DNA of 64,000 bases, from the NCBI GenBank assembly GCA_964619725.1, contig CAZUFC010000005.1:74418-138417 (forward strand), written 5' to 3'. Below are positions 15,381 to 40,233 of the stretch, piece after piece. This DNA is from an uncultured bacterium (lineage in GTDB: Bacteria > CSSED10-310 > CAZUFC01). The position numbers and the translations under genes are program-made. The number at the start of each line of letters is the position of its first letter. Within the stretch, counting starts at the first letter, position 1. Under the pieces are notes generated by a model. It was given only the letters and a program-made list of their open reading frames with translations, searched no databases and had not been told where the DNA came from.

Positions 15381-17519
15381 ATGAGAACAGTTAGCTTTTT
15401 TAATGCAGGCGTATTTTTCAGCGCCGTCGTCGTTTTTTTGATCATCATGCAGAATGCAGGTTATGCCGATAAAGGTGGGTTGGAAGACAACATGTATGGA
15501 TTCGTAAGTTATGGAGGCGACGAGAGTCCTCCGCTGGATGATGCGCCGGCGGTCATACGTTCGCTGGGAGCGGGGTGGCTTCAGTCTGAAGGCCCTGTTA
15601 CTTTCAGCAGGGGAGCATGCTGGGGATTGATTCAGCCGGAGAATTTGTACGACTTTGATTGGGATACTGTGGAATGGGTAAATGCAGCGGCAGCAGAAGG
15701 GCTTGGTGTTTTGATGGTCGTTGCTCCGGGCCATGATTCAGCGACAGTCGATAATTACAGTCCCTGGACCGACTGCGGCGGCGCCGGTCCAGTATGGCCG
15801 ACGAGCAATTGTCCGCCGGGGGATTACCAGCAATGGTATGAATTCTGTTATGCCGTCGGCGAACATTTTGACGGGGAGCATGGCGCTCCCCGCATCGATT
15901 ATTACATGACAACCGGCGAAACGGACGATGTAAATTACTGGCTGGGAAGCGCTGAACAGTACTACGGAGGTTCTGAAGCGACTGTTGTAACGAGGCGAAA
16001 CAATATGGGTCAGGTTGAATTGCCCGCTGCGCTGGTCCCTGTGCTGGAACTTGGAATAAAAGATGCGAATCCTGATGCGAAAATTGTGGTAGGAGCTTGC
16101 ACAGCCTGGCGATCATACGCATGGAATCATTTGAAGGATATGATCGACAGCGGCGCTTCTGAGGATGAAGTGACGACGCAGGCTAAACGATATGGCCTTA
16201 CCGACTCCTTTGCCCAACTTGTGAACAGGTTGGAAAACGATCCGCTCGTCAGGAGATCGGTGGAATTTCTATGGGCGAGCTTATCCATGCCTCAACATTA
16301 TGATATCTATGGAGCGCATTACTATGCCATGCATGGATATCATGATGCCATTTCCTATCTTCTTGATCAAATGGAGGAATCTGCCGTCAACAAACCAGTC
16401 TGGATGACGGGCGAAGGAAGGCCTTTCTCCGGCGATGCAGCGGGTCATCTGAAAAGCGCGGACCTCCATTTAAGGCGCATAATCTATTCGCATGCCCTCG
16501 GTCTTGACTGGCACGACGTTTCATTCCTGGTCGACGTCGTTCTTTTTAATTGCTGCGGAATGTACAAGCTGCCTCAGGCCGGCAGGGATTATCCCGCCAG
16601 ACGTCCGCTTGCGGATACTTTTCGTCTGATGGCTCACCTGTTCCCCTCAGCCGGTTGCGCTACGCCTCAAGATGTCGAATCTCCTTATGCTGATACGGAA
16701 CTTTTTTCCTTTTCCGTTCAGCATCCCGGTACGGGATATGCCGGAGGCGCAGCGGCAGGATGGTGCGAAAACACCTGTCCGGAATTTTCGAGTATAGGAA
16801 TGTGGTGTACTGAAGGTTGTCCGAAGCCGGAAATCGATATCAGCGCTGTTCTGGATATCTCTGACGGAACGGCAGTAACAGTCCTGGATGCTGCTGGAGA
16901 AATCATCGAACATAACGACGACGGATATTGCCCGGTCGTTTTCGATGAGTCTCCATTCGTTGCCGTTTGGGGACCGGACCGTGACGGCGATGAGATTCCC
17001 GATATACTGGATAATTGTCCTGAAACTTCCAATCAGGATCAAACCAATAATCCGGCAGAACATCTGGAGGGAAACGGGAATCCGCAAATTCCCGCTCCCG
17101 ACTGGATCGGCGATGCCTGCGATCCCTGTCCTGACGACGGTCATCCCGATTGCGGTCAAACGTGCGATACGACGGGAGTGGTACTATCTATGCCCACTCA
17201 ATGGTTTACTCCCGGAGACAACTGCTTTTTGACCGCTTCCGTCTGCAACGCATCAACCGCAGACCTGAACGGCAATCCGCTCTTCGTTATACTGGACGTA
17301 TACGGCCAATACTGGTTCGCCCCCGGATGGACAGAAACCCCCGACGCCTATTCCCGAAACTATGAACCGGGACTCACCGTCATATCGGTCATCAATCCGT
17401 TCCAGTGGCCGCAAAATACGGGAACCGCCGAAAATATTTTCTTTCATGCAGCACTTACCGATCCCGGAATCACTACCATACTGGGAGAAATGAGCTCCTG
17501 GCGCTTCGGATGGGAATGA
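15381..17519 (+). CDS. secreted glycoside-hydrolase-like protein with thrombospondin type 3-like repeat and shared C-terminal domain
   Basis: Signal peptide after AAGGAGG; CWGLIQP, GETD, KPVWMTGEG (GH-A clan-like); DRDGDEIPDILDNCP...IGDACDPC (TSP3); shared CTD at 17163-17519. Confidence 0.75.
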   Translation: MRTVSFFNAGVFFSAVVVFLIIMQNAGYADKGGLEDNMYGFVSYGGDESPPLDDAPAVIRSLGAGWLQSEGPVTFSRGACWGLIQPENLYDFDWDTVEWVNAAAAEGLGVLMVVAPGHDSATVDNYSPWTDCGGAGPVWPTSNCPPGDYQQWYEFCYAVGEHFDGEHGAPRIDYYMTTGETDDVNYWLGSAEQYYGGSEATVVTRRNNMGQVELPAALVPVLELGIKDANPDAKIVVGACTAWRSYAWNHLKDMIDSGASEDEVTTQAKRYGLTDSFAQLVNRLENDPLVRRSVEFLWASLSMPQHYDIYGAHYYAMHGYHDAISYLLDQMEESAVNKPVWMTGEGRPFSGDAAGHLKSADLHLRRIIYSHALGLDWHDVSFLVDVVLFNCCGMYKLPQAGRDYPARRPLADTFRLMAHLFPSAGCATPQDVESPYADTELFSFSVQHPGTGYAGGAAAGWCENTCPEFSSIGMWCTEGCPKPEIDISAVLDISDGTAVTVLDAAGEIIEHNDDGYCPVVFDESPFVAVWGPDRDGDEIPDILDNCPETSNQDQTNNPAEHLEGNGNPQIPAPDWIGDACDPCPDDGHPDCGQTCDTTGVVLSMPTQWFTPGDNCFLTASVCNASTADLNGNPLFVILDVYGQYWFAPGWTETPDAYSRNYEPGLTVISVINPFQWPQNTGTAENIFFHAALTDPGITTILGEMSSWRFGWE

Positions 17520-17555
17520 CCGAAAAAATCGTAGTGTTCTATCGGCAGCCAAGGG

Positions 17556-17576
17556 TTTGCGAAGGGCTCTGACCCC
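17556..17576 (-). repeat. REP-like repeat GGGGTCAGAGCCCTTCGCAAA
   Basis: Exact reverse-complement copy; further copies at 21868, 22800, 31471, 45673, 45818, 45906, 47332. Confidence 0.75.
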
Positions 17577-17809
17577 GGCGGCGACCCGCTACTGCGGTCC
17601 TTTCCGTCCTTTTAAAAAAATTGGATTTCGACAAGACAGGCTTGGATACGGGGATATCGGAAATACCATTCCAAACGAATTCTCCTGGCCCGTTATGGGC
17701 TGAAACTAAATACAGGGACTGAAATTTCGGTGCGCTCTGCAAAACGAAGAAATAAATTGTATCAGGGGCGATTAGTATATGATTGAATTCGGGTAGGGGT
17801 TTTAATGAT

Positions 17810-17894
17810 AAGGGACAAAGGGACAAAAGGACCAAAGGACCAAAGGACCTAAGGGACCTAAGGGACCTAAGGGACCTAAGGGACTGAAGGGACT
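17810..17894. repeat. tandem 8-9-bp repeat (AAGGGACCT/AAGGACCA), about 10 units
   Basis: Directly visible array in the intergenic region. Confidence 0.85.
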
Positions 17895-17950
17895 TCTGGA
17901 ATACAAAATCATTTGCACATGCAAAAAACCGTCATCTGAAAATTAACCGT

Positions 17951-18395
17951 CTTAAGAAAGAAACTAAATTTTGGGACTGATCAAAACGTGGTTATACTTT
18001 TTTCAAAACGTTTGACGGTTTGTTTAAGTAATCGGGGTTGGGGTCGGTATCGGGGTCGGGGTTAGGGTCGGGGTCGGGATCGTCATCGAAACAAAATGAT
18101 GGGATATTTGAAAGAATTGTAACCTCAAAAGACGCATTTTTGATCAATGCCGGAATTTTTGGACTGATCCTACCGGCGCTGCTCTTTTCCATAAAACCTT
18201 TGACTGATTGTAATCCCCATAAAAAAACTGATTCTCGCCCACAATTATCTGTTTGACCAATTCACTGCTGTTTTTCATCAATGACCGTTTTTTTCGATAC
18301 CGACATCAACCCGCTATTTCCGAAACAAATCGTCAAACGTTTTGAAAAAGGCGAACCCCCGGTTTGGTCAGTCCCAAAATTTTTGTTCCCTTAAG
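17951..18395. mobile_element. MITE-like element with ~100-bp imperfect terminal inverted repeats
   Basis: Left CTTAAG..AAATTTTGGGACTGATCAAAAC..CTTTTTTCAAAACGTTTGACGGTTTGTTT..GTCGGTATCG matches the reverse complement of 18296-18395; no transposase. Confidence 0.65.
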
Positions 18396-18565
18396 CCAGG
18401 TCGCTCCTTCTTCGCGCAGATTCACGGACGATAAACTCTTCACACAGTGCATCCGGCAGGTCTTTGACGCCGACGAAAACATTTGTTTATCCAGGAAAGC
18501 AGAACGCCTTTCTTCCATCCTGCTGGACGGAAGAAAGGCGTTCTAAGGTTTATGAACCGCTTTTA

Positions 18566-19948
18566 TCAAGGATGCCAGTCGAAGCTGACGGTGTCCAGCT
18601 CGCCGATGATATCGGTAATTTCAGGATTAGTCGCCCCGGCATACCATGTCGCTGTCCCGCTGCCGGCTCCTGAAGGCCACACGAAGGGGTCCAGCACATT
18701 TATCAGCGTTTCTCCGGGGTTCAGGTCGTACGTGTAATGATCGAAGCTGGAAAATGAGGGAGCGAAGAAGTATTCGCCGTACACGTCGAGAATGGCGAAA
18801 ACGGGCGTTTCTTCCATCGTCGTTGCATTGGTATTGCAAAACGTTACGTTGCAGTAGTACTCGTCGCCTGCGCCGAAATCTGTTTCGGGCAGTTCAATTG
18901 AGCAGCCCAGGGTTGAACAGCTCGAAGGTTCTTCGCTGATCACGATCCCTACCGGTGATGCGTTATAACCAGGTTCGGTATTCAGGTCCACTGAGTCCGC
19001 ATAGGTTAAACTTTCGCCGCTGACGTCGTATGCATAACATTCATCTTCATTATGCTCCGTGACGTAAATCCGGCTGCCTGCCGCGTTGACGGCTATTCTT
19101 CTCGGATTGCTGGGAATATCGGCTGAAGATACTATCGTCTCGTCGCTCAACCTCATCATGTTCACCACCGCATCAACACCCAGGTAGTGACCTATGAACA
19201 AATATTCGCCGTCAGGCGATATTCCTATGCCTCGAGGCTTCATTTCATCTGTCGTTATGGGCGCCAGCGCCTCGTCGTCCGATGTTCTTATCACTTCAAT
19301 CTGATCCTCCGCCATATTGCTGACGTAAACGCGGCTGTCGTCAGGGGTGATTACCGCATCCTGAAGAGCATATCCGTCGAAGTCAAGAACGGTCGTTACA
19401 GTATTATCAGAGGTCCTCAAAACATAAACGTCCGCATTCTGATAATCCACGATGTAGGCTTTTTCTCCGTCTGAAGTAAAAACGATGAAATTAGGACGGC
19501 CGCCTATGGATACGGTGTCGACGTAAGCCGCTGTCGAGGCGTTATATATACCTATTTCCCCCGTTTCCTCAAACGTTACGTATGCTTGATTCCCGTCCGG
19601 CGTGATAGCCGCGCCCATCGGACGGTTTAAAATTATATCCCCAAGGTCGATCGTTGTGATGCTGGTGAATGTCTCCGTGTCGATCAGCATTATATATTCC
19701 CGTGGTGGGCAAGTCACCCATAAACGCGATCTGTCCGGCGTTATCGCCACCGTGTGCGCATTATCATACAATTGCAGCGTATCCACTATTTCGAGATCGT
19801 CCGCATTCAGCTTCGCCAGAGTCGCCCAATAGGGACTGTCGCCGTGAACATACGAATTCACCACGTAAACATAGTCCTGTGCCGATACCGACACTACGGT
19901 CAACAAGACCGCCGCCGTCATTATCATTATTGCTCTCATTCTCATCAT
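18566..19948 (-). CDS. secreted YncE/YVTN-type beta-propeller protein with shared C-terminal domain
   Basis: Signal peptide; repeats AITPDRSRLWV, AITPDGNQAYV, ITPDDSRVYV, ISPDGEYLF; shared CTD at 18566-18919. Confidence 0.87.
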   Translation of the reverse strand: MMRMRAIMIMTAAVLLTVVSVSAQDYVYVVNSYVHGDSPYWATLAKLNADDLEIVDTLQLYDNAHTVAITPDRSRLWVTCPPREYIMLIDTETFTSITTIDLGDIILNRPMGAAITPDGNQAYVTFEETGEIGIYNASTAAYVDTVSIGGRPNFIVFTSDGEKAYIVDYQNADVYVLRTSDNTVTTVLDFDGYALQDAVITPDDSRVYVSNMAEDQIEVIRTSDDEALAPITTDEMKPRGIGISPDGEYLFIGHYLGVDAVVNMMRLSDETIVSSADIPSNPRRIAVNAAGSRIYVTEHNEDECYAYDVSGESLTYADSVDLNTEPGYNASPVGIVISEEPSSCSTLGCSIELPETDFGAGDEYYCNVTFCNTNATTMEETPVFAILDVYGEYFFAPSFSSFDHYTYDLNPGETLINVLDPFVWPSGAGSGTATWYAGATNPEITDIIGELDTVSFDWHP

Positions 19949-20331
19949 TTTTCCTCCTTGGTATCTTCCTGTTTCTTTTTCTGAAGCCGTATTTAAACCG
20001 ACTCCAGACTGTTGATAAAGACAGAAGCAAATCTCATGCCGACTTCCTGTCCGATTGGGACCACTGTCAAATGCCGTTCATTAATTCCTGTTATGAAAGC
20101 TGCTGATGAGAAACCGGATGTCGTTGATATTGTTAATCAGACTTGGCTTCATACTCTTGTTGTTTCTTTTTGGCCCAACAGAAAATACCGTACGTTTCCT
20201 GAAGATACACGCCAACGGCTTTTTTTGAATTTTTTCAGAGACTTAGCGCGGATTCCTCATACCGAAACTGTTTATGATCAATTCAGCATGAGAAATCCGG
20301 ACTCTTACTTATATCTTCTATAAGAGTAGCA

Positions 20332-21708
20332 TCACTTCGGTTTGACGTAAAAAACGGGTACGAGTCCTCCGCCCTGGTGAATATTGATGATCGTTCCCGC
20401 TGCGGCTCTCACGAACGAGCCGGCAAAATTTCCGTCGTGCGACCAGAAATTGATGTTCACATTTTTGTCTTCAAATCCCTGCAATTTATCGCCTTCCATT
20501 ACGGGAAACTTTTCCTTGGGAATGTTGACCAATTCCTGCGCCGTATAGGTCGTCCCTTCCCGGAAACTCTTTTCCATCAAATCTTCCCATTCTCGCTGAT
20601 TGGAGCTTATGCCTACCAGTATGCCGAATCCCCCGTAACCGTCATTCGGTTTCAGGACGAATTCGTTCTTATGGTTCCTGACAAAAGAAACCAGGTCTAT
20701 TTCTTTGCCCTTATAGTCCGTTTTTCCCTCCAGTAATGTCCGGGTCCAGGGAATGTGTTTTCGATGCGCTTCACGTTCCTCCGGCGAGAATATACTGTCG
20801 TATTGCGGATCGCTCAATATCTCCAGTATGGACTTCCAGTCGCCCGTTGCAGCGCTGACGGGATTCACGAAACAGACATTGCCTTCACGGTATGCATTGA
20901 GCACGGGTTGCGATTTTTCCCAGAATTCATCCAGAATGAAATCATCCAGCGCATCCCGGTATATAAGATGTATCGGTTGGCCCTTCAACGTCAGGGTCTT
21001 TCCGTCATAATCGAAGTCGCGGGGATCGGCGAAGTGCGCGTTGTGACCCATCTGCTTATAATACTCGACGAAGGAGAGAAAATCGCTGAGTATGGTGGAT
21101 TCGTTCCAGCAAACGAAGGCTATGTTGGGTTTTTCCAGGGGTTCTATGCCTTTATTTTCGCACCATTGTCTGTATTTTCTGAGGAAAATGGTGAAATGGG
21201 ATTTAACCAGCCAGTCCACAATCACCTCATATTTCTTCTGTAATTCCTTGATCACCGGCAATTCTAAAAACATTTCCAACAGATTGTCATGCCAGCCCAT
21301 CCCGCTTGGATCGCCGCAATTAAACTCCAGATACTTCAGTTCGCCGGTCTCCGGAATATAGAAAACATCCAGACGATTAACGATCTGATGACCCGGATAC
21401 CCGGCATCAATATTGGCCAGTTCCGCAGTCCGCCCGCTGATCTGAATTTGTTTTTTGAACGCGCCTTCCTGGAAGTAGGCATCGCCTATTTTGTTCAATG
21501 AAGAGATCATAAGTTGAGTCGTTTTACCGAAAAAATTTCTGTCTCCGGCATCGACGAAATAGGGTTTGAGGTATGTAGGAAAAGCTTCTCCGTGCATCTG
21601 CATCCCCTTTTCCGCCATTTTTTCTGCCAATGTCTGCATCTGTTCCGCCGGATCGGTTTTGGCCATCATTTCCTCAAAATCATCATTGACTTGTTTCAGT
21701 AAATCCAT
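20332..21708 (-). CDS. circularly permuted ATP-grasp (glutathionylspermidine-synthase-like) ligase
   Basis: NRLDVF, YLEFNCGDPSG, IHLIYR, FVLKPNDGYGGFGILVG, AQE, INIHQGGG. Confidence 0.8.
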   Translation of the reverse strand: MDLLKQVNDDFEEMMAKTDPAEQMQTLAEKMAEKGMQMHGEAFPTYLKPYFVDAGDRNFFGKTTQLMISSLNKIGDAYFQEGAFKKQIQISGRTAELANIDAGYPGHQIVNRLDVFYIPETGELKYLEFNCGDPSGMGWHDNLLEMFLELPVIKELQKKYEVIVDWLVKSHFTIFLRKYRQWCENKGIEPLEKPNIAFVCWNESTILSDFLSFVEYYKQMGHNAHFADPRDFDYDGKTLTLKGQPIHLIYRDALDDFILDEFWEKSQPVLNAYREGNVCFVNPVSAATGDWKSILEILSDPQYDSIFSPEEREAHRKHIPWTRTLLEGKTDYKGKEIDLVSFVRNHKNEFVLKPNDGYGGFGILVGISSNQREWEDLMEKSFREGTTYTAQELVNIPKEKFPVMEGDKLQGFEDKNVNINFWSHDGNFAGSFVRAAAGTIINIHQGGGLVPVFYVKPK

Positions 21709-21867
21709 GTGATTCTCCTTGCTTGCTGATCATTGTTCTTTTAGCTTATCAATAAATGCAAAATTCCGCGTTCGCTCAAAGAAATCATGTTTATCTAGCA
21801 GATTATCAACGATTTGACAATAAAAAAACAAAAGTAATGCCGTTCTCTGCAGAAAAGCTTTCGGGCC

Positions 21868-21888
21868 TTTGCGAAGGGCTCTGACCCC
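21868..21888 (-). repeat. REP-like repeat (GGGGTCAGAGCCCTTCGCAAA)
   Basis: Identical to the copy at 17556. Confidence 0.75.
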
Positions 21889-21988
21889 AGCGGAACGATC
21901 CGGAAACAAAGAATTACCGGATGGCTCTCAACCTCTCCTGAACGTTAAAACCCAAAAGACCCCGGTCCGGTCGGCGCTTGCATTCTCT

Positions 21989-22591
21989 TTATTGTTCCTC
22001 CGATTCCTCAGTTTCGTCTGCAGACGCCTCCGTCGCATCTAAAACTGATTTAACGTCCAGTTTTTTCAGATTTGAATTATCTCTTAAAAATTTTTCAATT
22101 TCCTGGCGGATGGGGTCCTGACTCACGATTTCAGACAGGAATATGCGTTTGTAACTGATGTTCCGCAATTCCTGTTGCAGGTAATCATCACGTTCTTCTT
22201 TCAACTTAAGGTTCTGCATGAAGAGCTTCTCTTCCAATGCCTCATTTTCCATCAGCAAAGACAGCAACATATCCGTCCGTTTGCCTTTGCCCAATCCCAT
22301 GACTCCAACGCCAGCCGCTTTTTTTCTGTATTGTTCCAGTTTTTCTTCCAGAAAATCGATTTTTTTCTGCAATTCTTGTTTTTCGTTCTGGAGTTTAATT
22401 TTTTCATTGTCCCAGAATTCTTTCAACGATCTTTCAATCGTTTTCATTGTGTCCATATTCTTTTTTGCGGTGCGTTCATATTTTTTCCTGACCGCCAGGC
22501 GTCCGATAAGGAATCCGATAATAATCAAAACGACGGTCAAAAAGGATCCGATGATAATTTGATAAGTAGTTTCTGAAAGAAGACCCGGCAT
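21989..22591 (-). CDS. membrane-anchored coiled-coil protein, hypothetical
   Basis: Start MPGLL after AGGGGAGG; single N-terminal TM helix followed by K/E-rich heptads. Confidence 0.75.
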   Translation of the reverse strand: MPGLLSETTYQIIIGSFLTVVLIIIGFLIGRLAVRKKYERTAKKNMDTMKTIERSLKEFWDNEKIKLQNEKQELQKKIDFLEEKLEQYRKKAAGVGVMGLGKGKRTDMLLSLLMENEALEEKLFMQNLKLKEERDDYLQQELRNISYKRIFLSEIVSQDPIRQEIEKFLRDNSNLKKLDVKSVLDATEASADETEESEEQ

Positions 22592-22799
22592 AAACAAACC
22601 TCCCCTGCTCATCTTCAGGTTAATGGTAAACGGGTTCAAAACGCATGTCAACCGTGGATAAAACGGGCGAGGGGTGGAAGAGTGGGGGATTGTCAAAGTG
22701 GCGAGTGAGAAAGGCGTTAAGGGTGGGTTAATAGAGTCTTCCAATCAGTTCAGCGCCTTTCTGTCCGGCATCCGCCATCCGGCATCAAGCGTTTGGAAA

Positions 22800-22814
22800 G
22801 GGGTCAGAGCCCTT
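22800..22814 (+). repeat. REP-like repeat
   Basis: GGGGTCAGAGCCCTT, preceded by a CCGGCATC...GCATCAAGC stretch like that before the 45906 copy. Confidence 0.7.
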
Positions 22815-22966
22815 TGGAGAGCATTGATTTTACAAAATAAGTTCAAGAAAATTAACGTTTTGTATTGACAGGCGCTGGAATATCTGGCATATACTTTCAA
22901 TTCTTAAACGGGCCTGATGGTCCTGTTCTTTTTCAGTCAACCAGCAATCGAGCAGGAGGCAATGGT

Positions 22967-28470: not shown

Positions 28471-30012
28471 ATGCACAGTTATATGGATTTTACAAGGCCG
28501 GTCAGTCGCCGTTCTTTTTTGAAGACGGGTTTAAAAATCGGCGCTGCGGCTGCCTTGACTCCGTCATTGTTCCGCCTGATGAAACCTCCTGTATTAAGCG
28601 CGGAAGATTTGAAAGCCGGATTAGCCGAATACAAGCTGCCGAAAGAAGTTCTGGAACGTCTGATTAAATCGTCGCTGGAACGCGGCGGCGATTATGCGGA
28701 CGTATACTTGTTGTATGAGGCTTCGATGAATCTTTTTCTGGAAGAGGAGCGGATAAAAAGCGGGGAGTACGGAATAAACGCCGGGGCCGGTATCCGGGTG
28801 ATTGAAGAGGACCGGATTGGGTTCGGGCATTCATCCGTTTTTGAAGAGAAGGAATTGGTTAAAGCCGCAGGAACCGCTGCGTTGATCGCTTCATCAGGTC
28901 CGGCCATGCCTCCGAGAAGCCTGGTCAAAAATTCTACTCCTTCTTATATAAACGTTATGGTTCCTCTTGAAGAGGTCACTCTGTCAAAGAAGGCGGAAAT
29001 GCTGAAGAAAATCGATAAAGCGGCCCGGAAATATGATTCCAGGATCAAACAGGTTTCCATAACTTACCATGAGGGTTTCACGCATCGTACGATGGCGAAT
29101 TCCCAGGGTATATTGATTGAAGACAGCATGCCTATGTCGATGTTGAGAGTCAACACGATAGCGCGAGATGGAAAAGCGACCGCTCCTGGTTTTTTAAGGA
29201 TGAGCAGTAGAAAAGGCTGGGAACAATACACAGAAGCAGATGCCGGCGAATTGGGTCGAAAAGCCGCCGAACAGGCTGTGACTATGCTGAAAGCCCGGGA
29301 AGCCCCGATGGGGACTATGACCGTCGTTATCGGAAACAGCGGAGGCGTCCTTTTTCATGAAGCAGTAGGGCATGGATTGGAAGCTGATGCCATCCGAAAA
29401 AAAGCTTCATTCTATGTCGATAAAAAAGGCGAAAAAGTCGCTGCAGATATTGTCAATCTGGTTGATGACGCCACTCTTCCCAATTTGCGGGGAACTTTTA
29501 ACGTCGATGATGAAGCTGTCCCAGGACAAAGAAAAACCCTGATAGAGAAGGGAATATTGAAATCTTACATGTTTGACCAGTTCGAAGCTTTCCAGGCTCA
29601 TACCCTCTCCACGGGCAACGGCCGGCGCGATAACTACTCCGATCAACCCATGCCCCGTATGTCGAATACTTTTATCCTCCCCGGAGAAGATGATCCTGAA
29701 GAGATCATCAAGGATACGAAAAAAGGCATTTATGCGAAAAATTTCGGGGGCGGCATGGTGGATACTTCCAGCGGCAATTTCACTTTCAACACTACTGAAG
29801 CTTATCTGATTGAGGATGGGAAGATTACCGCTCCCGTCAAGGGCGCCTCCCTGGTTGGAAATGGTCCGGATATTTTAAAGAAAATAGACCGGCTTGGAAA
29901 TGATCTGGACTTCTGGCCCGGCACATGCGGAAAAGGCGGGCAATGGGTTCCGGTTACTTCTGGAGCTCCGACGCTGAGGATCAGAGAGATCAACGTCGGA
30001 GGAAGCGGCTGA
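28471..30012 (+). CDS. tldD: TldD family metalloprotease with twin-arginine signal peptide
   Basis: SRRSFLK Tat motif; HEAVGHGLEAD, GNGRR, PRMSNT, GTCGKGGQ. Confidence 0.93.
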   Translation: MHSYMDFTRPVSRRSFLKTGLKIGAAAALTPSLFRLMKPPVLSAEDLKAGLAEYKLPKEVLERLIKSSLERGGDYADVYLLYEASMNLFLEEERIKSGEYGINAGAGIRVIEEDRIGFGHSSVFEEKELVKAAGTAALIASSGPAMPPRSLVKNSTPSYINVMVPLEEVTLSKKAEMLKKIDKAARKYDSRIKQVSITYHEGFTHRTMANSQGILIEDSMPMSMLRVNTIARDGKATAPGFLRMSSRKGWEQYTEADAGELGRKAAEQAVTMLKAREAPMGTMTVVIGNSGGVLFHEAVGHGLEADAIRKKASFYVDKKGEKVAADIVNLVDDATLPNLRGTFNVDDEAVPGQRKTLIEKGILKSYMFDQFEAFQAHTLSTGNGRRDNYSDQPMPRMSNTFILPGEDDPEEIIKDTKKGIYAKNFGGGMVDTSSGNFTFNTTEAYLIEDGKITAPVKGASLVGNGPDILKKIDRLGNDLDFWPGTCGKGGQWVPVTSGAPTLRIREINVGGSG

Positions 30013-30051
30013 TTGATAGTTAAACAATAAATGAATAATGAGGGCAGTTAC

Positions 30052-31398
30052 ATGGAAACTTCAGAACTTGCACTGGCTGCGGTCAAGGAAGCTCGCAATA
30101 AAGGCGTTAAAAATATGGACGCTTTTATCAAGCGCGATAATAAATTCAATCTTTCAATGAAAGAAGGAAAAGTAATCAACGTCACTCAATCCGTATTCCA
30201 GGGCATCGGAATCAGAGTAGTCATAGATAAAAAACTGGGCTTCGTTCACTCCACAGACCTCAGAAAATCACGCATTAATGAACTGATCGATAAAGCCGTC
30301 GAACTCACTTCATTCTCTGAACCCGACCCATACTTGCATTTTCCCCCCATAAAACAAAAATACGATGATTACTCCATACTGGACCCTGACTTCTCAAAAA
30401 TCACCCTTGATCAGAAAAAAGAACTGCTGGTTAAACTGGAAAAATCAGGGCTTAAATTTTCCGATAAGATAAAAAGCGCTGCAGAAATTCACTACTGGGA
30501 CGTTTTGACGGAGACTACCATAGCCAATACTTCCAATCGTTCGACCACTTATGTCGGCAGCGTTTACGGTTTCGGAGGCGAATTCGTCGCTGAAGAAGAC
30601 GGCAACCGTAAAACGGGTGAATTCTACTTGCAAAAAAGATTTTTCAAAGACCTGCCGAAACCCGAATGGATCGGCCGAAAAGCCTCGCTTTACGGATTAT
30701 GGCTGCTGTCGGGAGAACCGGTGGAGTCGCAAACGGTTCCCGTGGTGTTCGATCCCAACGGCGCAGGACCGGCCCTCATTAGATGGGGCATCGGAAACGC
30801 TCTTAAAGGAGAAAACGTAAGATTGAATCGATCCTTCCTGGAGAATAAGCTCAATGAAAAAGTCGCCTCTCCGTTGTTTACCCTGTTGGATGACGGAACG
30901 ATGGACAAAGGCGTAGGAACGGCTCCTTTCGATGATGAAGGAACTCCAACCCGGAAAACCGTCATGATCGACAAAGGCATTTTAAAATCATACCTGTTCG
31001 ACGCTGTTTCTGCCGCCAAAGCAGGAGCCGAATCCACAGGCAACGCTCATAGGGACGAACATAATGCCTTTCCCGAAATCGGGTACAATAACCTGTACAT
31101 GGCAAACGGCGATACTACTGTTGCTGATATCATCGGTTCCATCGAAAAAGGATTCTACGTCATCAGCACCATGGGGTTCGGCATGGACTCCGTTACCGGC
31201 AACTTCTCCGTAGCTGCACAGGGCCGGTGGATAAAAAACGGTCAATTCGATCATGCTGTCTCAGGCATATCACTTACGGGAAAACTCTACGACATGCTCA
31301 ATGACGTCGATGCCGTCGGTGACGATCTCGATTTTACCGATGACGTCTGCAACTGCCCCACTTTTCGTATTAAAAAAATGCAGATAAGCGGCATCTGA
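30052..31398 (+). CDS. pmbA: PmbA/TldE family protein
   Basis: PFDDEGTP, STGNAHR, TGNFSVAAQG; no HExxxH; follows tldD. Confidence 0.9.
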   Translation: METSELALAAVKEARNKGVKNMDAFIKRDNKFNLSMKEGKVINVTQSVFQGIGIRVVIDKKLGFVHSTDLRKSRINELIDKAVELTSFSEPDPYLHFPPIKQKYDDYSILDPDFSKITLDQKKELLVKLEKSGLKFSDKIKSAAEIHYWDVLTETTIANTSNRSTTYVGSVYGFGGEFVAEEDGNRKTGEFYLQKRFFKDLPKPEWIGRKASLYGLWLLSGEPVESQTVPVVFDPNGAGPALIRWGIGNALKGENVRLNRSFLENKLNEKVASPLFTLLDDGTMDKGVGTAPFDDEGTPTRKTVMIDKGILKSYLFDAVSAAKAGAESTGNAHRDEHNAFPEIGYNNLYMANGDTTVADIIGSIEKGFYVISTMGFGMDSVTGNFSVAAQGRWIKNGQFDHAVSGISLTGKLYDMLNDVDAVGDDLDFTDDVCNCPTFRIKKMQISGI

Positions 31399-31470
31399 TT
31401 CTATCACATCCCTTAAGTTTCTGAATTATATGCGGCGCTGTTAAAATCCCTCAAACCGGCATCCGTAGAT

Positions 31471-31491
31471 GGGGTCAGAGCTCTTCCGCAA
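31471..31491 (+). repeat. REP-like repeat (variant)
   Basis: GGGGTCAGAGCTCTTCCGCAA. Confidence 0.65.
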
Positions 31492-31737
31492 TATTTGTTT
31501 TTCAATAAGCCGCATAAATCGGCCATCGGATTTGTCTGAAGTTCGGGAGTGCAGCAACGGTTGACTGTTTGAAAATTTAAGATATTATCTCTTGATGGAG
31601 ATGCCAGAAGTCCGGACTAATGAGAATTCGTTGAGACATGCTATGACAGGACCTTAAATCCGGCTGATGACTGATTGTCTTTGGAGGGGCTCTCTGGTTC
31701 ATTAAAAACGACTATGGATTGCGAAAGGAAGCCAAGT

Positions 31738-32673: not shown

Positions 32674-32763
32674 AGTTATTCGTTGCATGAGCGATTAGGC
32701 GAAAATGCAGTGGAGAAGGCCGCACCGGGAACTCTAAACATTTATCAGATAAAGGAGAATAAA

Positions 32764-34290
32764 ATGAAGTATACTCGAATACTTTTGTTTTTTGTTTTAG
32801 TTGTCCTCGGCGCGACGGCGCAGGCTTCTGATTGGGAAATTGAAACGGTCGACTTGACGGGATTGATCCCCTGGAATTACAGCGACATGGTTTTTACTTC
32901 CGACGGGTATCCGCATATCGTTTTTCAGGCCCTGACGCAGTTGATATCCTTTCCTTATTATATGGAAAAAACATGTGACGGGTGGGAAGTTCCGCCGCAA
33001 AGACTGGATGATGGTCCTGAAACAGGGGCCTGGACGACCATGACCGTCGAAGATGATGGCGATATTCATGTCGCCTGGCAGAATATTCAATTAAGGGAAT
33101 TACGTTATGCTTCCGAGGATTCGGGGTGGGACATTCATCCGTTTGAGGATTTCAATGACGAAGGAAATTTCAATCATATTTTTATGCGACAGAACGATCA
33201 GCCCGAAATTATTTATGCGGACACCTCCAATTATCAGATTGAAATAGTAAGACAGAATATTACCGGCGTATGGGGAGAAGAAGAAGTCATCAGGAACACG
33301 CCGGTCCTTGCCATTGTAAAAGACTTTTCCGTCCTTAAATACGGCGAGCAAAATTATGGATTCGCTTATGCGACTTACCAGAGTCCGGACCTGAACGTTT
33401 ATTACGCCCTGAACGATGATGAAGAAGAGCTCGTTTACAGTCGCTCCGAAAACGGTTCGCTTTTTATAAAACTCCTGGGCGATGCGCAAAATCCCATAAT
33501 ACTTTACCTTCTGGATGGAGCTCTTTTCTTCGCTTACAGAACTGCAAGTTGGACGGTTGAACCGATAATGGACGACTTACAGAATAAAGCCTTCGATGCC
33601 GCTCTCGATCCCAACGGAAATATCTGGTTTGCGGCGATCGACTTATCTGGCGCTCTCATAGTCGGCCGCGGCGATCAGAACGGATGGAGCTCAGAAACAG
33701 TGGACGCTGGAAGCCAGTATAAACTTCCTGCCATGCAGATACTCGGCGACCTAACCATAGCCGTTTCCTACTTCAATCCTTCAGGTCCCTCAATGAAATA
33801 CGCCACATCTCAGGTAAGCGTTCCGACACCTACCGTCACAGCTTCTCCCGTCATCACTCCAACTCCCTCCACACCGACCGTCTCCCCGGAAATTTCCCCC
33901 TCGCCCACGCCCGATCAGAACCTTCCTCAAGTCACGTTGGAATTAAACCAGTCCGTTTTCTATCCAGGCGATATGTTTAATCTGCAGGCCAGAATCGTTA
34001 ATTCCACCAGCATAGTCTATTATGTCGACCTCTTTGCCATGCTGGAAGTCTACGGCCTCTACTTCTTCTGGCCCGAATGGAACCAGGCGAATATTGGATG
34101 TCAGTCTCACATTCACCTTTCCCCACAGCAGTTTAAAAAGTTTCAGATACTCAAATTTACCTGGCCCGATGATTCCGGCTCAGGCGCAGCGACTTTCTAC
34201 GCCGCCGTTATGGGCAGCGAATCGCCGGAAGATTGTGAAACCGAAGCATTTTACGATATGGATTCTGTAACCTTCTCCTGGGATGACTAA
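32764..34290 (+). CDS. secreted beta-propeller-like protein with Pro/Thr linker and shared C-terminal domain
   Basis: Signal peptide MKYTRILL..; repeats WEIETVD, DGYPHIVF, WTVEPI, WSSETVD; PT linker; shared CTD at 33922-34290. Confidence 0.8.
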   Translation: MKYTRILLFFVLVVLGATAQASDWEIETVDLTGLIPWNYSDMVFTSDGYPHIVFQALTQLISFPYYMEKTCDGWEVPPQRLDDGPETGAWTTMTVEDDGDIHVAWQNIQLRELRYASEDSGWDIHPFEDFNDEGNFNHIFMRQNDQPEIIYADTSNYQIEIVRQNITGVWGEEEVIRNTPVLAIVKDFSVLKYGEQNYGFAYATYQSPDLNVYYALNDDEEELVYSRSENGSLFIKLLGDAQNPIILYLLDGALFFAYRTASWTVEPIMDDLQNKAFDAALDPNGNIWFAAIDLSGALIVGRGDQNGWSSETVDAGSQYKLPAMQILGDLTIAVSYFNPSGPSMKYATSQVSVPTPTVTASPVITPTPSTPTVSPEISPSPTPDQNLPQVTLELNQSVFYPGDMFNLQARIVNSTSIVYYVDLFAMLEVYGLYFFWPEWNQANIGCQSHIHLSPQQFKKFQILKFTWPDDSGSGAATFYAAVMGSESPEDCETEAFYDMDSVTFSWDD

Positions 34291-34759
34291 TCCCGAAACA
34301 TTATTTCCCGGATTCAGCGTTCTTCAAAAATTCAACAAAATGAACAGAAGAACAGGTGTCCGGCATCCTGCCGTTTCCTCCGAACCGTTAGCCCGGATTT
34401 CTCATACAAAATCGCAGTGAGAGCGTTCAGATTCCCGCAGGTAAACGGATAATTCGCCGTTTATGGACAGGCGCTCGCTAGTTTATGGATCAGAGAATAG
34501 CAACGCCCGTCCGTTCTTGAATATTGAGTCAAAAATGACTTTTCGGAAGGACGCTCTTCATTTTTTCTCGGATCGTATAGATACAGGAATGACTGCAGTG
34601 CTGTCCCGCTTTGATTTTTCGAATTTTTTGTATTATAATTTAATAGATTAGAATACTGCGAATTAAAGCGTTGCAGCGACTCGACAGCTAATGTTGGAAT
34701 TTTGAGCAGAACGCCGCAGTTTAAATTTGTCCGAATTTTATTTATAGGAGGCTCTGGAC

Positions 34760-36616
34760 ATGAAGAGACGCGTTTCGGCAATGATTTTTCTGAGCGTATT
34801 ATGGGGAATGACTGAGGCAAGGGCTTCGGTGCCCCATCAAATTAACTATCAGGGGCATGTGACCGACGATCAAGGGACGCCCTTGACGGGGAGTTATCAG
34901 TTTATTTTCAGGATTTTCGATTTGGAGACAGGAGGATTGCCTTTGTGGATGGAGTCTCATGAAAATGTAGCGGTCAGATCAGGATTATTCAATGTGATTT
35001 TAGGGGCCATTTTTCCCTTGAATCTGGATTTTGACGAGACTTATTGGCTGGAGATCAAATTTGAGGGCGAGGTGATGTCGCCGAGGCTCAAGATGACGAG
35101 TACTGGACAGGCATACCATTCAGAGATATCAGAAGACGTATATGATTATGACGTGCATCCCCGGAGCGTTGCTGTAACGGGGTATGGAGAGGTGATAAAT
35201 GAAAGCGGTGAATGGGTCGGGAGTCCGACAGGTTTGACCGGACCGACAGGACCGTCGGGTCCGACAGGACCAATGGGGCCGGATGGACAGATCGGAGCTA
35301 CAGGACCGAGAGGTCCGAGCGGTCCCGGGGGGCCATCAGGTCCTATGGGTCCGCATGGCCAAACCGGGGCTACCGGACCGGCAGGCGCTTCGGGACCGTC
35401 AGGACCGTCGGGTCCGATGGGGCCGTTCGGGCAAACCGGCGCAACCGGTCCTACCGGCCCCGTGGGGCCTAGCGGTCCGAGCGGACCGATGGGACCATTC
35501 GGTCAGCCTGGCGCTGCCGGACCTTCAGGTCCTTCGGGACCGACAGGACCCGGAGGACCCTCCGGACCACAGGGTTCGTTTTCATGCGGAGTTGAAGAAA
35601 ACTGCGCATCATCTTATCCGGGAGCCTGGGTGACAAATTCGTCCGGGCATGGCGCCTGGTTTGAATATACGGCCGGCGGCGACGGCGTTGGGATGATCGG
35701 CAAGAGTTCCTACAGGGGCATTGAAGGACAAAACAACAATGGTAATTTCGGATATATCGGCAGCGGAAGTAATGGAGTGTTCGGTTATGCCGCCGGAATG
35801 GGAAACCAGGCTGTCTACGGCGAAAATTCTGTCGGGACCTACGGGCTGCTGGGCGGCGGTATGCGCGGAGTCGAAGGCGGCAGGTCTTCAGGTTATCCCT
35901 GGGGTTATATCGGCAGCAGCGCCAGAGGCGCTGAATTCGTCGACGGTCCTCAAAAAGGCGTTATTATGGCCTACAGCGCCAGGGCCCTGCAGGCCTCGCA
36001 GGGTTCCGACAACTGGGCTGCTCTAGCCGATGCCGGCGGAAATGCTCTTTATGCTGAAACTGCCGATCCCGAAGGTTATGCCGCTAATATTAGAAATGAG
36101 GGTGGGGCAGGCTCTCCCGCATTATACCTCAACGGCTACGGTTACGGTCATTCTTGGCTCTCCTACGGCAAACATTTCGCCGTTGTTGTAAATACTGATC
36201 AAGGCCGCAATTTGCTCTTTTCCATTACAAGTCCCCACAACGAAATACAAACTTCCGGGCAGGGCAGAATGCAAAACGGCAAAGCGATTATCAAATTCGA
36301 CCCTGAATTTTCAGAATTATTGTCCGATAATCACAACATGAGAGTCATCGTCACTCCCCAGGAACAATGCAACGGACTCTTTGTCGCTCATAAGTCCAGC
36401 AAGGGCTTTATCGTTGAAGAATTATTGAATGGAAAATCCGATGCAGCCTTCGACTGGATCGCCATCGCCAGAAGAAAAGGTTATGAAGACCATAAAATAG
36501 AACAATACTTCCCTCTGCAAAACAAACCCGGAGCTCTCTCTCCATCGCAAAACACCGATCCGGGATATTGCCGCACCGATTCCGTGAGTTCAAAGGTCGC
36601 CTTCACCCGGAAATAA
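34760..36616 (+). CDS. secreted collagen-like fibre protein
   Basis: Signal peptide; [10 protein letters not shown]-domain; ~38 uninterrupted G-X-Y triplets; Gly-rich GVxG repeats; C-terminal [13 protein letters not shown] domain. Confidence 0.85.
35231..35573 (+). repeat. collagen G-X-Y coding repeat with 8-triplet (72-bp) higher-order period
   Basis: GPM-GPx-GQx-GAx recurs every 8 triplets, four times. Confidence 0.85.
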
Positions 36617-36628
36617 CATCTAAAAAAA

Positions 36629-36670
36629 GAACCCGGACAGACAATGGGAAGTTTTCGTCTGACCGGGTTC
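36629..36670 (+). terminator. stem-loop downstream of the collagen-like gene
   Basis: GAACCCGG-A-CAGAC ... GTCTG-A-CCGGGTTC. Confidence 0.45.
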
Positions 36671-37278
36671 GAGAAGGGGAGTTTTTTGAATCACTCCTGC
36701 CGGCAGGTTGGGTAACTGAAGATCGATCGGAGTTCCTGCTCACTCTCGATACCATTCTTGACATTACCGCCATTATGAAAGCAAATTCCAGGCCAAAATT
36801 TTAGAAAAACAGTTCATCGTATTTTATTGTATATATTGTTTTTTTTGATTATGTCCCAGATGACATGCTGTAACGGATTGAGTTACTTGCTGCCGCTGTT
36901 CGCTGGGCTTTATGAACCGGATGACAGGGAAAGGGCCGGCATTTTATCCTTTCAGGTTTTGAAAATAAAAACGTCTGGTCTAAAATGACGCCCTAAAAAA
37001 ATGTAATATGTTTCATTACACTCAGAAAGCCTATTCTTGATGGAAAAATCCTCCTCTGCAAAGTCGCTGTCGGTTGGTCGCCTTGAAAACGACTGTTTTC
37101 TTCATTAGAATTATTCGTGTGTTAGAAAGGCGGCAGAAAGTCTGGGAATTCCAGGCTTTTACCGGCTTCCAGTTTATATCAAAAGTGAAATAATACTGTT
37201 TAAGGTGATTGGATAAGTCGGATTCATTCCGCAGGGCCGGGTTAATGAGCGTAATGAGACTGAAATCCAGGGGGGGCA

Positions 37279-40233
37279 GTGATGAAAAACAAAAAGAAGA
37301 GTCGATTTATCATTTTTAGCGCCATTTTTTTATTTTTTTCGTTTGTCGTCCAGGCGGCGCCTGAGGGAGTCGGTCATTCAACGGAAAAGTGTTTGCAGGG
37401 AAGCGCTTCGATATCTCTGCTGCCGTTAAGGATAAGGCTCCAGAATAATTTATCGACCTGCAGAACAGACGAACCAGTCACTTTCGGGGTGCCTCTGGGT
37501 TATTTTGAGGATATCAGGGACCTTGATTCTTTGGATTTGAAATGCAACGGAGTAAGCGTCCCTGTTCAAAAAAGAGCGACGGCTCGGTGGGCGGGAAGTC
37601 CGAACGACGGCGCTCGGCCCTTGCAATGGCTGTTGCTTGATTTTCAGGCTTCGATTCCAGCGGGTGAATATAAGGATTATATCCTCTGTTCAGCTCCTTC
37701 GTCGTCATATGACAGCCCGCTTCAGATAATAGCGGATACGGCGGAGTCGTTCGCTGTGGATACGGGAGCGGCCGTATTCAGGCTTTCCAAACAGAATTTT
37801 AAGCTGTTCGATCAAGTGATTTTGGCAGAGGGGAAGACATACGGCCCCTGTGAAGGCATTAGATTCGGGGATTTCCAAACCGGCGCGGTTGAATTGAGGG
37901 TTGAGGAGCAGGGGAAGGAGCGGATTGGAATAAGCATAAAGGGAACACTGAGCAATGGTCTGGAGTATACGTTGAAGTTGGATTTCTACAAGGGGAAATC
38001 ATATGTTCGGGGTCGTTTTCGTCTGGAAAATTTAAATACAATTCAGACGGACGGCGGCGGACAACCTCAATGTAATGATTACGGATCATCGGGAAGCGCA
38101 AGTTTCGATGATTTGAGCCTGGTGATAGCCGGGAACGGGGCATCCCTGTGTCTGGTTCCGGCGGGTGAAAACGGTGCAGCGGGGACGACATCTTTGAATT
38201 TCGTATCGGAAGTGAGCGTGGTGCAGGAGTCGAGCGGCAGATCAGGATGGGACCATCTTTTAACGGAGCATCCCCGGATGCAGTCAGGGACTTCGAAGCG
38301 ATCGTCGACGATAAGGATAGATGGGATTGAAGGCGATGGTCCAGGGCGTTTCGGCGGATGGCTGGATGCTTACGGAGTCACTATAGCTGTTAAGGATTGT
38401 TCGGAAAACTTTCCGAAGGCGTTTCGAGCTTCAGACGACAATCTGGAACTGGGGCTGTTTCCCGGGGAATACAGCATGGATCATGAGTTTCGCGCCGGTG
38501 AATTCAAGACTCATTCATTCTTGATTTATTATCATGAGGATGATCAAGCAGACCAGTGTGAAACCGCGAATGCATTTCTCAAACCGTTGAAGCCGGAAAT
38601 TGCGGCGGATTATTTAATGGAAACGCGGTCGCTGGGATTAATGGCTCCGAGACGCCAGGAAGATTCCATGACGCAGGACTATGAGGATTATATTGATTAT
38701 ATGCTGGAGCCTTCGCCTGATTGGAGCGGCGAGGAATATCCCTGGCCGACGCTTCTTGCGAGCATAAACAATTTTAATCATTATGGCTATGTGGATTACG
38801 GCGATGTCCCTACAGATTTCGAATGTTGGTCTGAAACAGCAGCGGCTCCCTACAACCTGAAGTATGATGCTTTAAAAGGAATGTACTTCGCCTGGTTAAG
38901 AACAAATGATCCTGCTTGGGGTCGTCTGGCCGAGGCGGGGGTAGTTCACTATGCTGATTTTGATATACTGCATTCGGAGGTCAGAGGCAAACATGCGGAC
39001 CGATTGTGGTTTCAGGGCGGCGCTTACGGGCATGGGTATCATGATGAGCGAGGCAATGCGAATCCTCATAGAAATTATATGAATCCGCATCCCTCCATGT
39101 CATTCGCCGTGCCGGGCATGATACTCCATTATTTTCTGACCGGCGATTCGCTTGTCGGGGACGCTGCGCTCGAGTTAGCCGAGAATATGTACTGGCGGAT
39201 TACCCATTCGGGATACTGGGAATCCGGGCCCTGCGGATCAATATTAAGAGACTGCGATCCTGAAGCGGACGAATGTCACGGCTGGTCCGAATTCTTCTGG
39301 GGGAGACTGGGAGGCAATGCCTTTAAATCTTTTCTTTCCGCATATATGACGACCGGCGATGACGACTACATCGAAATACTGGAAAGATGCTGCGAATACA
39401 TGGTCTGCTGCGATACTCAAGTCGATTCCATCAACGATTGCGACAGGTATCATTTTAAATGCACATTCCTCAGTTACCTTTGCGAATACATACTTTACAG
39501 GAGACTCACAGGATATCCCGACGACGATAACGCCCTCTATGTCCTGGGCTCCAGTATCGATTACATGATCAACGTTCTATGGGACCACGATGCCGAACAG
39601 TTCCGGATGTGTTACGAAACAGCGGAATTATACGATTTTCACGATAACTGGCTGGTTGCCGTCGCGGACGTCTTGGCCGGAGCAGCCCTTATTTTCAATG
39701 ACGAAACCATTTTTACGGATTATGCCGTTCCCGTTTTCCTGGATGGAACCGCCAATCCCTTCTGCCCCGGATGCGATTTCTCCTATAATTCCGCCAAGGA
39801 GTTCGTCAATGGAGTCGGATTCGGACATGTTTTCCTATACGCGTATGATTATTACTCTCCGCCGGCCTTCACGGGCGTGCGTCTGGAAATGCCGTCAACC
39901 CAATTTTCACCGGGAGACCAGTGCTGGTTGAATGCCGTGCTGTCCAACGAAGGACCGGAATTGAACGACGTTCCGCTCTTCGTTATTCTCGATGTCTTCG
40001 GAGAATACTGGTTCTGGAACGACTGGAAGCAGGAACCCGATTACGGACGAGTCGATCTGCCCGCAGGCGCCTCCGTCACTATAACCATAATCGACCCGTT
40101 TCAATGGCCTGACACGGGTTCGGACGAACTTGACGGCATTGTTTTCTGGAGCGGTATGACCGATCAGGACCTGTCGGAAATACTGGGCGGCATCGAAGGT
40201 ATCGGTTCCTGGGAATTCGGATACGGACCTTGA
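37279..40233 (+). CDS. large secreted YetA/PcRGLX-like (RIFT barrel + alpha/alpha) protein with shared C-terminal domain
   Basis: Signal peptide; EPVTFGVPL, PVQ..W....WLLLDF, VDTGAAVF, ENFPKA, YGYVDYGD, H.ADFDI.H; shared CTD at 39868-40233. Confidence 0.75.
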   Translation: MMKNKKKSRFIIFSAIFLFFSFVVQAAPEGVGHSTEKCLQGSASISLLPLRIRLQNNLSTCRTDEPVTFGVPLGYFEDIRDLDSLDLKCNGVSVPVQKRATARWAGSPNDGARPLQWLLLDFQASIPAGEYKDYILCSAPSSSYDSPLQIIADTAESFAVDTGAAVFRLSKQNFKLFDQVILAEGKTYGPCEGIRFGDFQTGAVELRVEEQGKERIGISIKGTLSNGLEYTLKLDFYKGKSYVRGRFRLENLNTIQTDGGGQPQCNDYGSSGSASFDDLSLVIAGNGASLCLVPAGENGAAGTTSLNFVSEVSVVQESSGRSGWDHLLTEHPRMQSGTSKRSSTIRIDGIEGDGPGRFGGWLDAYGVTIAVKDCSENFPKAFRASDDNLELGLFPGEYSMDHEFRAGEFKTHSFLIYYHEDDQADQCETANAFLKPLKPEIAADYLMETRSLGLMAPRRQEDSMTQDYEDYIDYMLEPSPDWSGEEYPWPTLLASINNFNHYGYVDYGDVPTDFECWSETAAAPYNLKYDALKGMYFAWLRTNDPAWGRLAEAGVVHYADFDILHSEVRGKHADRLWFQGGAYGHGYHDERGNANPHRNYMNPHPSMSFAVPGMILHYFLTGDSLVGDAALELAENMYWRITHSGYWESGPCGSILRDCDPEADECHGWSEFFWGRLGGNAFKSFLSAYMTTGDDDYIEILERCCEYMVCCDTQVDSINDCDRYHFKCTFLSYLCEYILYRRLTGYPDDDNALYVLGSSIDYMINVLWDHDAEQFRMCYETAELYDFHDNWLVAVADVLAGAALIFNDETIFTDYAVPVFLDGTANPFCPGCDFSYNSAKEFVNGVGFGHVFLYAYDYYSPPAFTGVRLEMPSTQFSPGDQCWLNAVLSNEGPELNDVPLFVILDVFGEYWFWNDWKQEPDYGRVDLPAGASVTITIIDPFQWPDTGSDELDGIVFWSGMTDQDLSEILGGIEGIGSWEFGYGP

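Follow-up and report, generated by a model that had tools for sequence, protein, structure and literature searches.

Bacterial surfaces are shaped by C-terminal address modules, such as the C-terminal domain (CTD) of the type IX secretion system (T9SS), the dockerin, the LPXTG motif, and the exosortase tails, and each of these has led to its sorting machine. T9SS CTDs have an immunoglobulin (Ig)-like sandwich fold and are shorter than the domain described here; dockerins serve non-covalent surface assembly via a Ca-binding EF-hand pair; SLH domains, which are helical and usually triple, anchor proteins to a cell-wall polymer; pre-peptidase C-terminal (PPC) domains aid secretion, are then removed, and are largely confined to peptidases; and CARDB domains are commonly repeated and not bound to a position. 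Here, a domain of about 115 residues is described that closes four genes in a stretch of 64,000 nucleotides (C5:74418-138417, henceforth the window) from the 9.17-Mb assembly (344 contigs, 90.9% complete, 6.5% contamination) of an uncultured bacterium of the phylum CSSED10-310 (GTDB). On related cargo the domain is exchanged with a membrane-type, exosortase-like tail, which is the main new result, and the domain probably represents a novel type of address or anchor at the cell surface. A preliminary description of the window had proposed that the domain is an undescribed, lineage-specific export or surface-sorting signal. The four carrier genes and their tail domains are as follows (window coordinates):

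15381..17519, plus strand: gene 1, 712 amino acids (aa) from the ATG start, with an alternative TTG start at 15360; exported; cargo of no family with an Asp-rich, TSP3-like and a Cys-rich segment, then the tail domain
17163..17516, plus strand: tail domain copy 1, 118 aa, directly adjoining the stop codon; 183.5 bits against the four-copy profile
18566..19948, minus strand: gene 2, exported seven-bladed beta-propeller of the lactonase/YncE type, then the tail domain
18569..18919, minus strand: tail domain copy 2, 117 aa; the sequence used for the AlphaFold2 model
32764..34290 (or from a start at 32683), plus strand: gene 3, exported; uncatalogued cargo, Pro/Thr linker, tail domain
33814..33921, plus strand: Pro/Thr/Ser-rich linker of gene 3, 36 aa, directly before copy 3
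33922..34287, plus strand: tail domain copy 3, 122 aa, more diverged than the other three
37279..40233, plus strand: gene 4, exported, 984 aa, distantly PcRGLX-like, then the tail domain
39868..40230, plus strand: tail domain copy 4, 121 aa

All four open reading frames (ORFs) were found as first described, each ending in the common domain. The four copies, i.e., the last 117 to 122 residues, can be aligned over their full length with 15 invariant columns and 29–47% identity to the first copy, and pairwise BLASTP between copies gave E-values of 4e-30 (45% identity over 120 aa) and 9e-15 (31% over 118 aa). The cargo parts are mutually unrelated, as had been stated (best cross-pair BLASTP E-value 0.84), and the N-terminal signal peptides were recognised, by eye and with a heuristic, as a basic-then-hydrophobic, Sec-like start on all four proteins. 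A profile of the four copies searched against all six-frame ORFs matched 215 ORFs genome-wide, with exactly four matches in the window and another four on the same contig within 35 kb upstream of it. A profile of 44 copies searched against 6,468 crude gene calls matched 216 genes, just one of them with two copies, so that the many further copies that had been expected genome-wide do exist. Carriers are about three times as often provided with a signal-peptide-like start as other proteins (149/216 vs 859/4053, by a heuristic rather than SignalP), in agreement with the expectation that the domain sits on exported rather than on cytoplasmic proteins.

Within the phylum, the domain is present in 11 of 14 genomes, including genomes of only 2.6–3.3 Mb, at 61 to more than 150 copies per carrier genome; the three domain-free genomes, G001, G002, and G004, are 96%, 87%, and 93% complete, respectively. 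It was detected in none of 27 sampled genomes outside the phylum. Public records carrying the domain are named "candidate division CSSED10-310", which bears out the resemblance to C-termini of this phylum that had been put forward. Two assemblies with other labels, Verrucomicrobiota (7.2 Mb) and Gracilibacteria (1.5 Mb), contain a single copy each, apparently through mis-binning or rare transfer. In a world library of 1.84 billion cluster representatives, 2,478 matches were obtained at an E-value of at most 0.001, and 456 at an E-value of at most 1e-30. The cargo of the 79 best relatives from this library, which may include proteins of this genome, was assigned to a Pfam family in 39 cases, comprising right-handed beta-helices (10), subtilases of family S8 (5), FG-GAP (5), and Kelch repeats (2), as well as peptidases C25 and C11, VWA, PD40, BNR/sortilin, a PETase-like hydrolase, a metallophosphatase, and others, i.e., judging by these assignments, typical exoprotein material. 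A genome paper on the phylum predicts Gram-negative cells, and its main text does not mention the domain (PMC8248873). A description of the domain was likewise not found in searches of the literature on CSSED10-310, on IPTL-CTERM, or on sorting domains, exosortases, and T9SS.

This genome also has a second type of C-terminal ending. Similar to IPTL-CTERM, it consists of an [IV]-P-[AST] motif (consensus [IV]-P-A-x-[GS]), a membrane helix, and a basic end, and was found on 229 proteins with a loose pattern and on 185 with a strict one, in which [IV]-P-[ASTVL] immediately precedes an uncharged helix at the C-terminus with a basic tail behind it; at genome scale, two of these tails exceed the IPTL-CTERM cut-off. 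The two endings were never seen on one protein (216 domain genes vs 185–229 membrane-tail proteins). Both sets have signal-peptide-like starts in about 70% of cases, compared to 21% of other proteins by the same heuristic, and in both the ending is mostly preceded by a Pro/Thr linker of at least 10 aa (139/200 domain copies vs 143/185 membrane tails). The two endings are exchanged on the same cargo: 85 domain-bearing cargos have a membrane-tail paralogue in this genome at an E-value of at most 1e-20, with 68% identity over 836 residues in the best pair, and the homology of such paralogues stops at the Pro/Thr linker, beyond which one carries the domain and the other the membrane tail.

The same exchange is seen between genomes. 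The orthologue of gene 1 in the domain-free genome G004 is 48% identical over the cargo, retains the Asp/Cys-rich segment, and, at the exact point where the domain begins in gene 1, passes into a short motif, followed by a hydrophobic helix and a tail rich in Arg. Gene 4, too, has an orthologue in G004 (34% identity) with a membrane helix and an Arg-rich tail in place of the domain. In the three domain-free genomes, gene 2 found weak propeller matches only (best E-value 2.3e-6) and gene 3 nothing; hence, with no usable orthologue for these two, the evidence for exchange between genomes comes from genes 1 and 4 and from the C25 peptidase family. Among the C25 peptidases of this genome (24 of 26 genes examined), 14 end in the domain, five in a membrane tail, and five otherwise. 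The domain-free G001 has 15 C25 copies, of which 13 were retrieved and 12 are readable to their end: nine end in VPTLS-type tails and none in the domain, one tail scoring above the IPTL-CTERM cut-off and several matching the XrtH "midcut" model weakly. C25 had also been considered as a PorU-like sortase limited to domain-bearing genomes, which was rejected given its presence in 14/14 genomes, with the 15 copies in G001. In other phyla, homologues of the gene 4 cargo carry PKD, CARDB, or BACON domains at the same end, and one ends in dockerin-like repeats (read by eye), so that this end of the cargo is a general docking place for surface modules.

Two side observations concern these cargos. The segment of gene 1 at 16950-17160, with Asp-rich TSP3-like repeats and a Cys-rich part, is conserved in the G004 orthologue, and it matches the model of the Myxococcus MYXO-CTERM protein MtsC weakly (E-value 0.064). 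Three C25 paralogues (G000:C70:1692-4955, C69:23988-27275, and C72:2274-5870) share a third ending, a conserved stretch closing with W-P-x-L-N-V, which may be another recurrent C-terminal module.

The membrane-type tail has a candidate enzyme in the phylum. A small protein of the exosortase/archaeosortase family (190 aa; G000:C134:12955-13527; 65.7 bits on TIGR04178) is nearest to archaeosortase B (ArtB) and XrtH, below the cut-offs of both, and its like is present in 14/14 phylum genomes, including the three domain-free ones; full-length EpsH-type exosortases were found only in G001 and G002 among the 14. The gene of the small exosortase is on the minus strand of its locus and overlaps an ORF of 214 aa that belongs to no family; a sigma-54 two-component pair resembling PEP-CTERM-box regulators is encoded nearby. 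PEP-CTERM was tried as a complementary tag of the domain-free genomes and dismissed, with only one weak match in 14 genomes. An IPTL-CTERM tail has been reported for the S-layer protein of the diderm Methylomirabilis lanthanidiphila (PMC8671808), which makes the tail that is traded for the domain a cell-surface address.

The favoured reading, to which a probability of roughly 45% is given, is that the domain acts as a folded address or anchor, in alternation with the exosortase tail, and most likely holds its cargo at the cell surface. The lineage-specific Ig-like domain would then be interchangeable with that tail as a C-terminal address module of Sec-exported enzymes and adhesins, usually placed at the tip of a flexible Pro/Thr stalk. 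Cargo would cross the outer membrane by a general route, e.g., through secretin-based systems, and would be retained at the surface by non-covalent binding of a conserved aromatic hairpin and the adjoining loops to an envelope component, possibly a glycan or a surface protein. Anchoring is favoured by the N-terminal and internal copies described below, by long stalks like those of the membrane anchor, by the conserved aromatic cluster, and by the presence of secretins in 14/14 phylum genomes. The stalks are pronounced: the 25 residues upstream of the domain consist on average of 48% Pro/Thr/Ser (17% genome-wide) and reach at least 50% in 113 of 198 copies, and a linker of at least 50 residues lies ahead of 62 of 200 copies.

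The position of the domain bears on whether it acts in anchoring or in export. It ends within five residues of the stop codon in 192 of 216 genes (89%), and in 162 of 165 aligned copies the last conserved aromatic has just one to five residues behind it; among the best 150 of the 2,478 world matches, 143 (95%) lie within five residues of the end, three at 6–20 residues, and four further in. This near-absolute bias keeps alive a different reading, in which the domain is a true C-terminal secretion signal of a dedicated outer-membrane pathway, analogous to the T9SS CTD or PPC and possibly removed after transport. The tight end, the single copy per protein, the 61 to more than 150 copies per genome, the cargo spectrum (C25 and S8 peptidases, beta-helices), which resembles that of T9SS, and the Ig-like sandwich shared with T9SS CTDs would all suit such a signal. 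Non-terminal placement is rare, with five clear cases among the 216 genes and 7 of the best 150 world matches more than five residues from the end; the exceptions are nevertheless real and weigh against a secretion signal. The domain ends more than five residues from the stop in 24 of 216 genes, and at least five of these are truly N-terminal, internal, or doubled rather than artefacts of gene calling: two proteins carry the domain directly behind the signal peptide, in one it is flanked by two FGE-sulfatase-type domains, in one it precedes another C-terminal domain, and one repeat protein has a copy at each end. Of the four far-internal world relatives, two independent ones share an architecture in which the domain lies between two Pro/Thr linkers. 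Since such copies indicate that the module works without a free C-terminus, they argue against a strictly C-terminal translocation signal and are easier to reconcile with a module for binding or anchoring than with a secretion signal that is threaded. A 440-aa relative with the order signal peptide, second half of the domain, linker, first half, unrelated segment, and complete copy reflects either scrambling or permutation or a chimeric assembly.

Further evidence against the secretion signal comes from the long Pro/Thr stalks, which precede the domain and the membrane anchor tail alike, and from the search for machinery, in which nothing co-distributed with the domain was found. The T9SS tail model TIGR04183 had no match in this genome. 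It gave 11 matches above cut-off in two fragmented, incomplete phylum bins (10 in G013 and one in G012), in which SprA was not found; these matches show that the model works and are probably contaminating contigs. SprA (TIGR04189) was detected in 0/14 genomes in a search to which no control genome responded either, so that T9SS is called not found rather than absent, and PorV (NF033710) was not detected in this genome in a search where one control matched, below the cut-off (PorU and GldKLMN were not searched for). Taken together, a dedicated secretion signal is considered unlikely. As to the preliminary description, which had offered a secretion or attachment signal, the general role as address or anchor is supported by the exchange of endings, and the export signal or "system" is not supported, no dedicated machinery having been found and the N-terminal and internal copies fitting it less well.

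The family and fold of the domain were addressed with sequence and structure searches. On the four proteins, no Pfam or NCBIfam match fell on the domain at an E-value of at most 1, and with 44 copies at an E-value of at most 10 only six Pfam families appeared, each from a single copy and at chance level (best E-value 0.066). The best hit of a profile search against PDB sequences, LRP4 (E-value 0.0029), had no stretch that passed and was taken as chance. Nothing usable came from the ESM Atlas, where scores to unnamed clusters did not exceed 0.89 and a single CARDB cluster ranked 14th. The domain thus belongs to no catalogued family in Pfam, NCBIfam, or PDB sequences, as "undescribed" had implied, and it has no membrane helix, also as claimed. 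AlphaFold2 on a 44-row alignment with window copy 2 as query gave a confident model (mean predicted local distance difference test 97.8, predicted template modelling score 0.88) with eight strands and no helix, and the predicted fold is a generic Ig/CARDB-like eight-stranded beta-sandwich of about 115 residues that would fold autonomously. A homodimer prediction scored 0.00, below the mark, and is evidence neither way.

The structural neighbours bring in another reading, namely that the domain is similar to a carbohydrate-binding module (CBM) and tethers enzymes to an environmental polymer or mineral surface rather than to the cell. Foldseek and VIA-align returned a broad field of Ig-like domains headed by accessory domains of glycoside hydrolases (GH; dextranase and GH2, Z 9.9-9.3), among them dextranase 5axg (Z 9.9, root mean square deviation (rmsd) 3.4, 103 residues aligned) and the GH2 protein 8u01 (Z 9.5), followed by RbmA (Z 9.1), the porphyran-binding CBM 8wae (Z 7.7), and macroglobulin domains; CARDB 3idu was matched with a Foldseek template modelling score of 0.64/0.67 (query/target) at an rmsd of 3.8, and by VIA-align with Z 9.0 and an rmsd of 3.0 over 97 residues. 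In addition to these neighbours, the motifs rich in conserved aromatics, the PKD, CARDB, or BACON domains at the same end of gene 4 homologues, and the Pro/Thr linkers, which are typical of CBM-enzyme junctions, would be expected of such a module. Z values of this size are, however, common for unrelated Ig-like sandwiches, so that only the fold class, and no family, follows from them. The cargo (proteases, phosphatases, propellers, VWA, and adhesin-like repeats) is too diverse for a single substrate, single-copy and near-exclusively C-terminal placement is unlike CBMs, and the domain excludes, and is swapped with, a cell-anchoring tail on the same cargo. Cargo diversity and this exclusion weaken the CBM-like reading, and it is regarded as rather unlikely.

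Conservation within the domain is strong across paralogues of 23–47% identity, with P84 in 164 and N30 in 155 of 165 copies. The most conserved positions lie in the L-D-V-x-G-x-Y-W-F-x-P-x-W region, in F-x-W-P, and in the terminal F-G-aromatic, i.e., in an aromatic-rich hairpin and loops. Since a row of conserved aromatics along a single strand cannot be buried in its entirety, the sequence points to an exposed aromatic patch. A Cys at profile column 29 is always paired with a Cys just before the domain (21/21); the pair is likely a disulfide, found in a subfamily that includes window copies 1 and 2, and suggests an extracytoplasmic life. The generic fold and the lack of a known partner would suit a passive Ig-like cap that closes the protein for structure or stability and serves as no address; given motifs that are so strongly conserved across diverged paralogues, hundreds of copies per genome, and mutual exclusion with a sorting tail, this is very improbable.

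Several points weigh against the folded surface anchor as favoured here. Neither a receptor or ligand nor a co-distributed gene was identified, and no family is strongly enriched within three genes on either side of the 216 carriers, where the two large single-linkage neighbour clusters reach 20–23% against a baseline of 14%. In the window, the genes between the four ORFs are housekeeping genes (permease, H+-PPase, NifU/NifS, TldD/PmbA, OTCase), and the four ORFs are thus scattered carriers rather than an operon. Few binding modules show so strict a C-terminal bias, which would suit a secretion signal, too. Exposure of the aromatic patch was deduced from residue patterns rather than from model coordinates, and signal peptides were judged by heuristic or by eye throughout. 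For the two G004 tails, even the best-scoring curated sorting-signal model, MYXO-CTERM, stayed below its cut-off (13.4 bits), so that none fits. The bin being fragmented and in part contaminated, the copy counts include some duplicates (two identical matches were seen). A bolder version, considered doubtful, takes the domain as the address tag of an undiscovered envelope pathway limited to CSSED10-310, i.e., of a dedicated outer-membrane export or attachment machine or of a cohesin-like receptor on giant exosortase-anchored surface proteins, which would run alongside the exosortase system and trade cargo with it; if true, a diderm phylum would have two switchable routes of surface display.

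The cargo assignments of the preliminary description fared unevenly. For gene 2, the YncE propeller is supported (Pfam Lactonase 6e-9, above cut-off; NCBIfam YncE 3.6e-13, below cut-off). The label "GH-like" for gene 1 found no support, Pfam giving only a sub-threshold TSP_3 match and PDB sequences none. The Pro/Thr linker of gene 3 is present at 33814-33921, and the propeller assigned to the same gene had no family match. The "RIFT-like" character of gene 4 is supported solely via distant homologues with PcRGLX-like domains (PF19501/PF21345). Elsewhere in the window, the metallopeptidase genes TldD and PmbA are adjacent at 28471-31398 (plus strand), after the NifU/NifS pair. The 618-aa exported protein encoded between genes 3 and 4 (34760-36616, plus strand) contains about 45 triplets of the collagen type, Gly-X-Y (Pfam Collagen, 2.9e-10), is rich in Gly and Tyr in its C-terminal half, and has neither the tail domain nor a membrane-type tail.

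In a rare, uncultured, sediment-dwelling diderm phylum, an uncatalogued folded module thus occurs on 2–4% of genes and is freely exchanged with an exosortase-type tail. The 11 genomes with the module, the three without it, and the paralogue pairs that differ in their ending alone form a comparative system, which can be used for finding the receptor or machine and for finding what decides between covalent or membrane sorting and sorting by a folded domain. A curated profile would name about 2,500 clusters of "hypothetical" tails.

Compared to known systems, the domain shares with the type A CTD of T9SS (TIGR04183/PF18962) a folded beta-sandwich at the extreme C-terminus of unrelated Sec-exported proteins, tens to hundreds of copies per genome, and similar cargo classes. 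It differs from it in its size of about 115 aa with eight strands, its long Pro/Thr linkers, its occasional N-terminal or internal copies, and in that SprA and PorV were not found, and the distinction already drawn in the preliminary description holds by profile, with no TIGR04183/PF18962 match (E-value of at most 1 for the four proteins, at most 10 for 44 copies). Among the rows listed by Foldseek and VIA-align, which are dominated by other Ig-like domains, there was no T9SS CTD chain. Like the IPTL-CTERM/exosortase H tails (TIGR04174, TIGR04177), the domain follows a Pro/Thr linker at the same position on paralogous and orthologous cargo; unlike them, it is a folded, soluble module of 115 aa with no hydrophobic helix and no basic tail, and hence cannot be an exosortase substrate of known design. 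The tripartite CTERM signal (IPTL-, PEP-, MYXO-CTERM) is lacking in the domain, which ends 1–5 aa after its last strand.

CARDB (PF07705; 3idu) is the closest single-domain structural match and also terminates one gene 4 cargo homologue; the fold is shared, at Z values similar to those of unrelated Ig-like domains, but no profile match was obtained (Pfam, E-value of at most 10, 44 copies), and hhalign against the CARDB-ending homologue gave a probability of 0.1. PPC (PF04151) and SLH resemble the domain as C-terminal beta-rich or binding modules of secreted proteins, and differ from it in that their Pfam profiles do not match. From the type I dockerin the domain is set apart by a different fold, by the lack of a Pfam match, and by the lack of an identified cohesin-like receptor; both are single, mostly C-terminal modules behind a linker on up to hundreds of secreted enzymes, and, by this analogy, the dockerin is the best functional counterpart for a domain that would hold its cargo at the cell surface.

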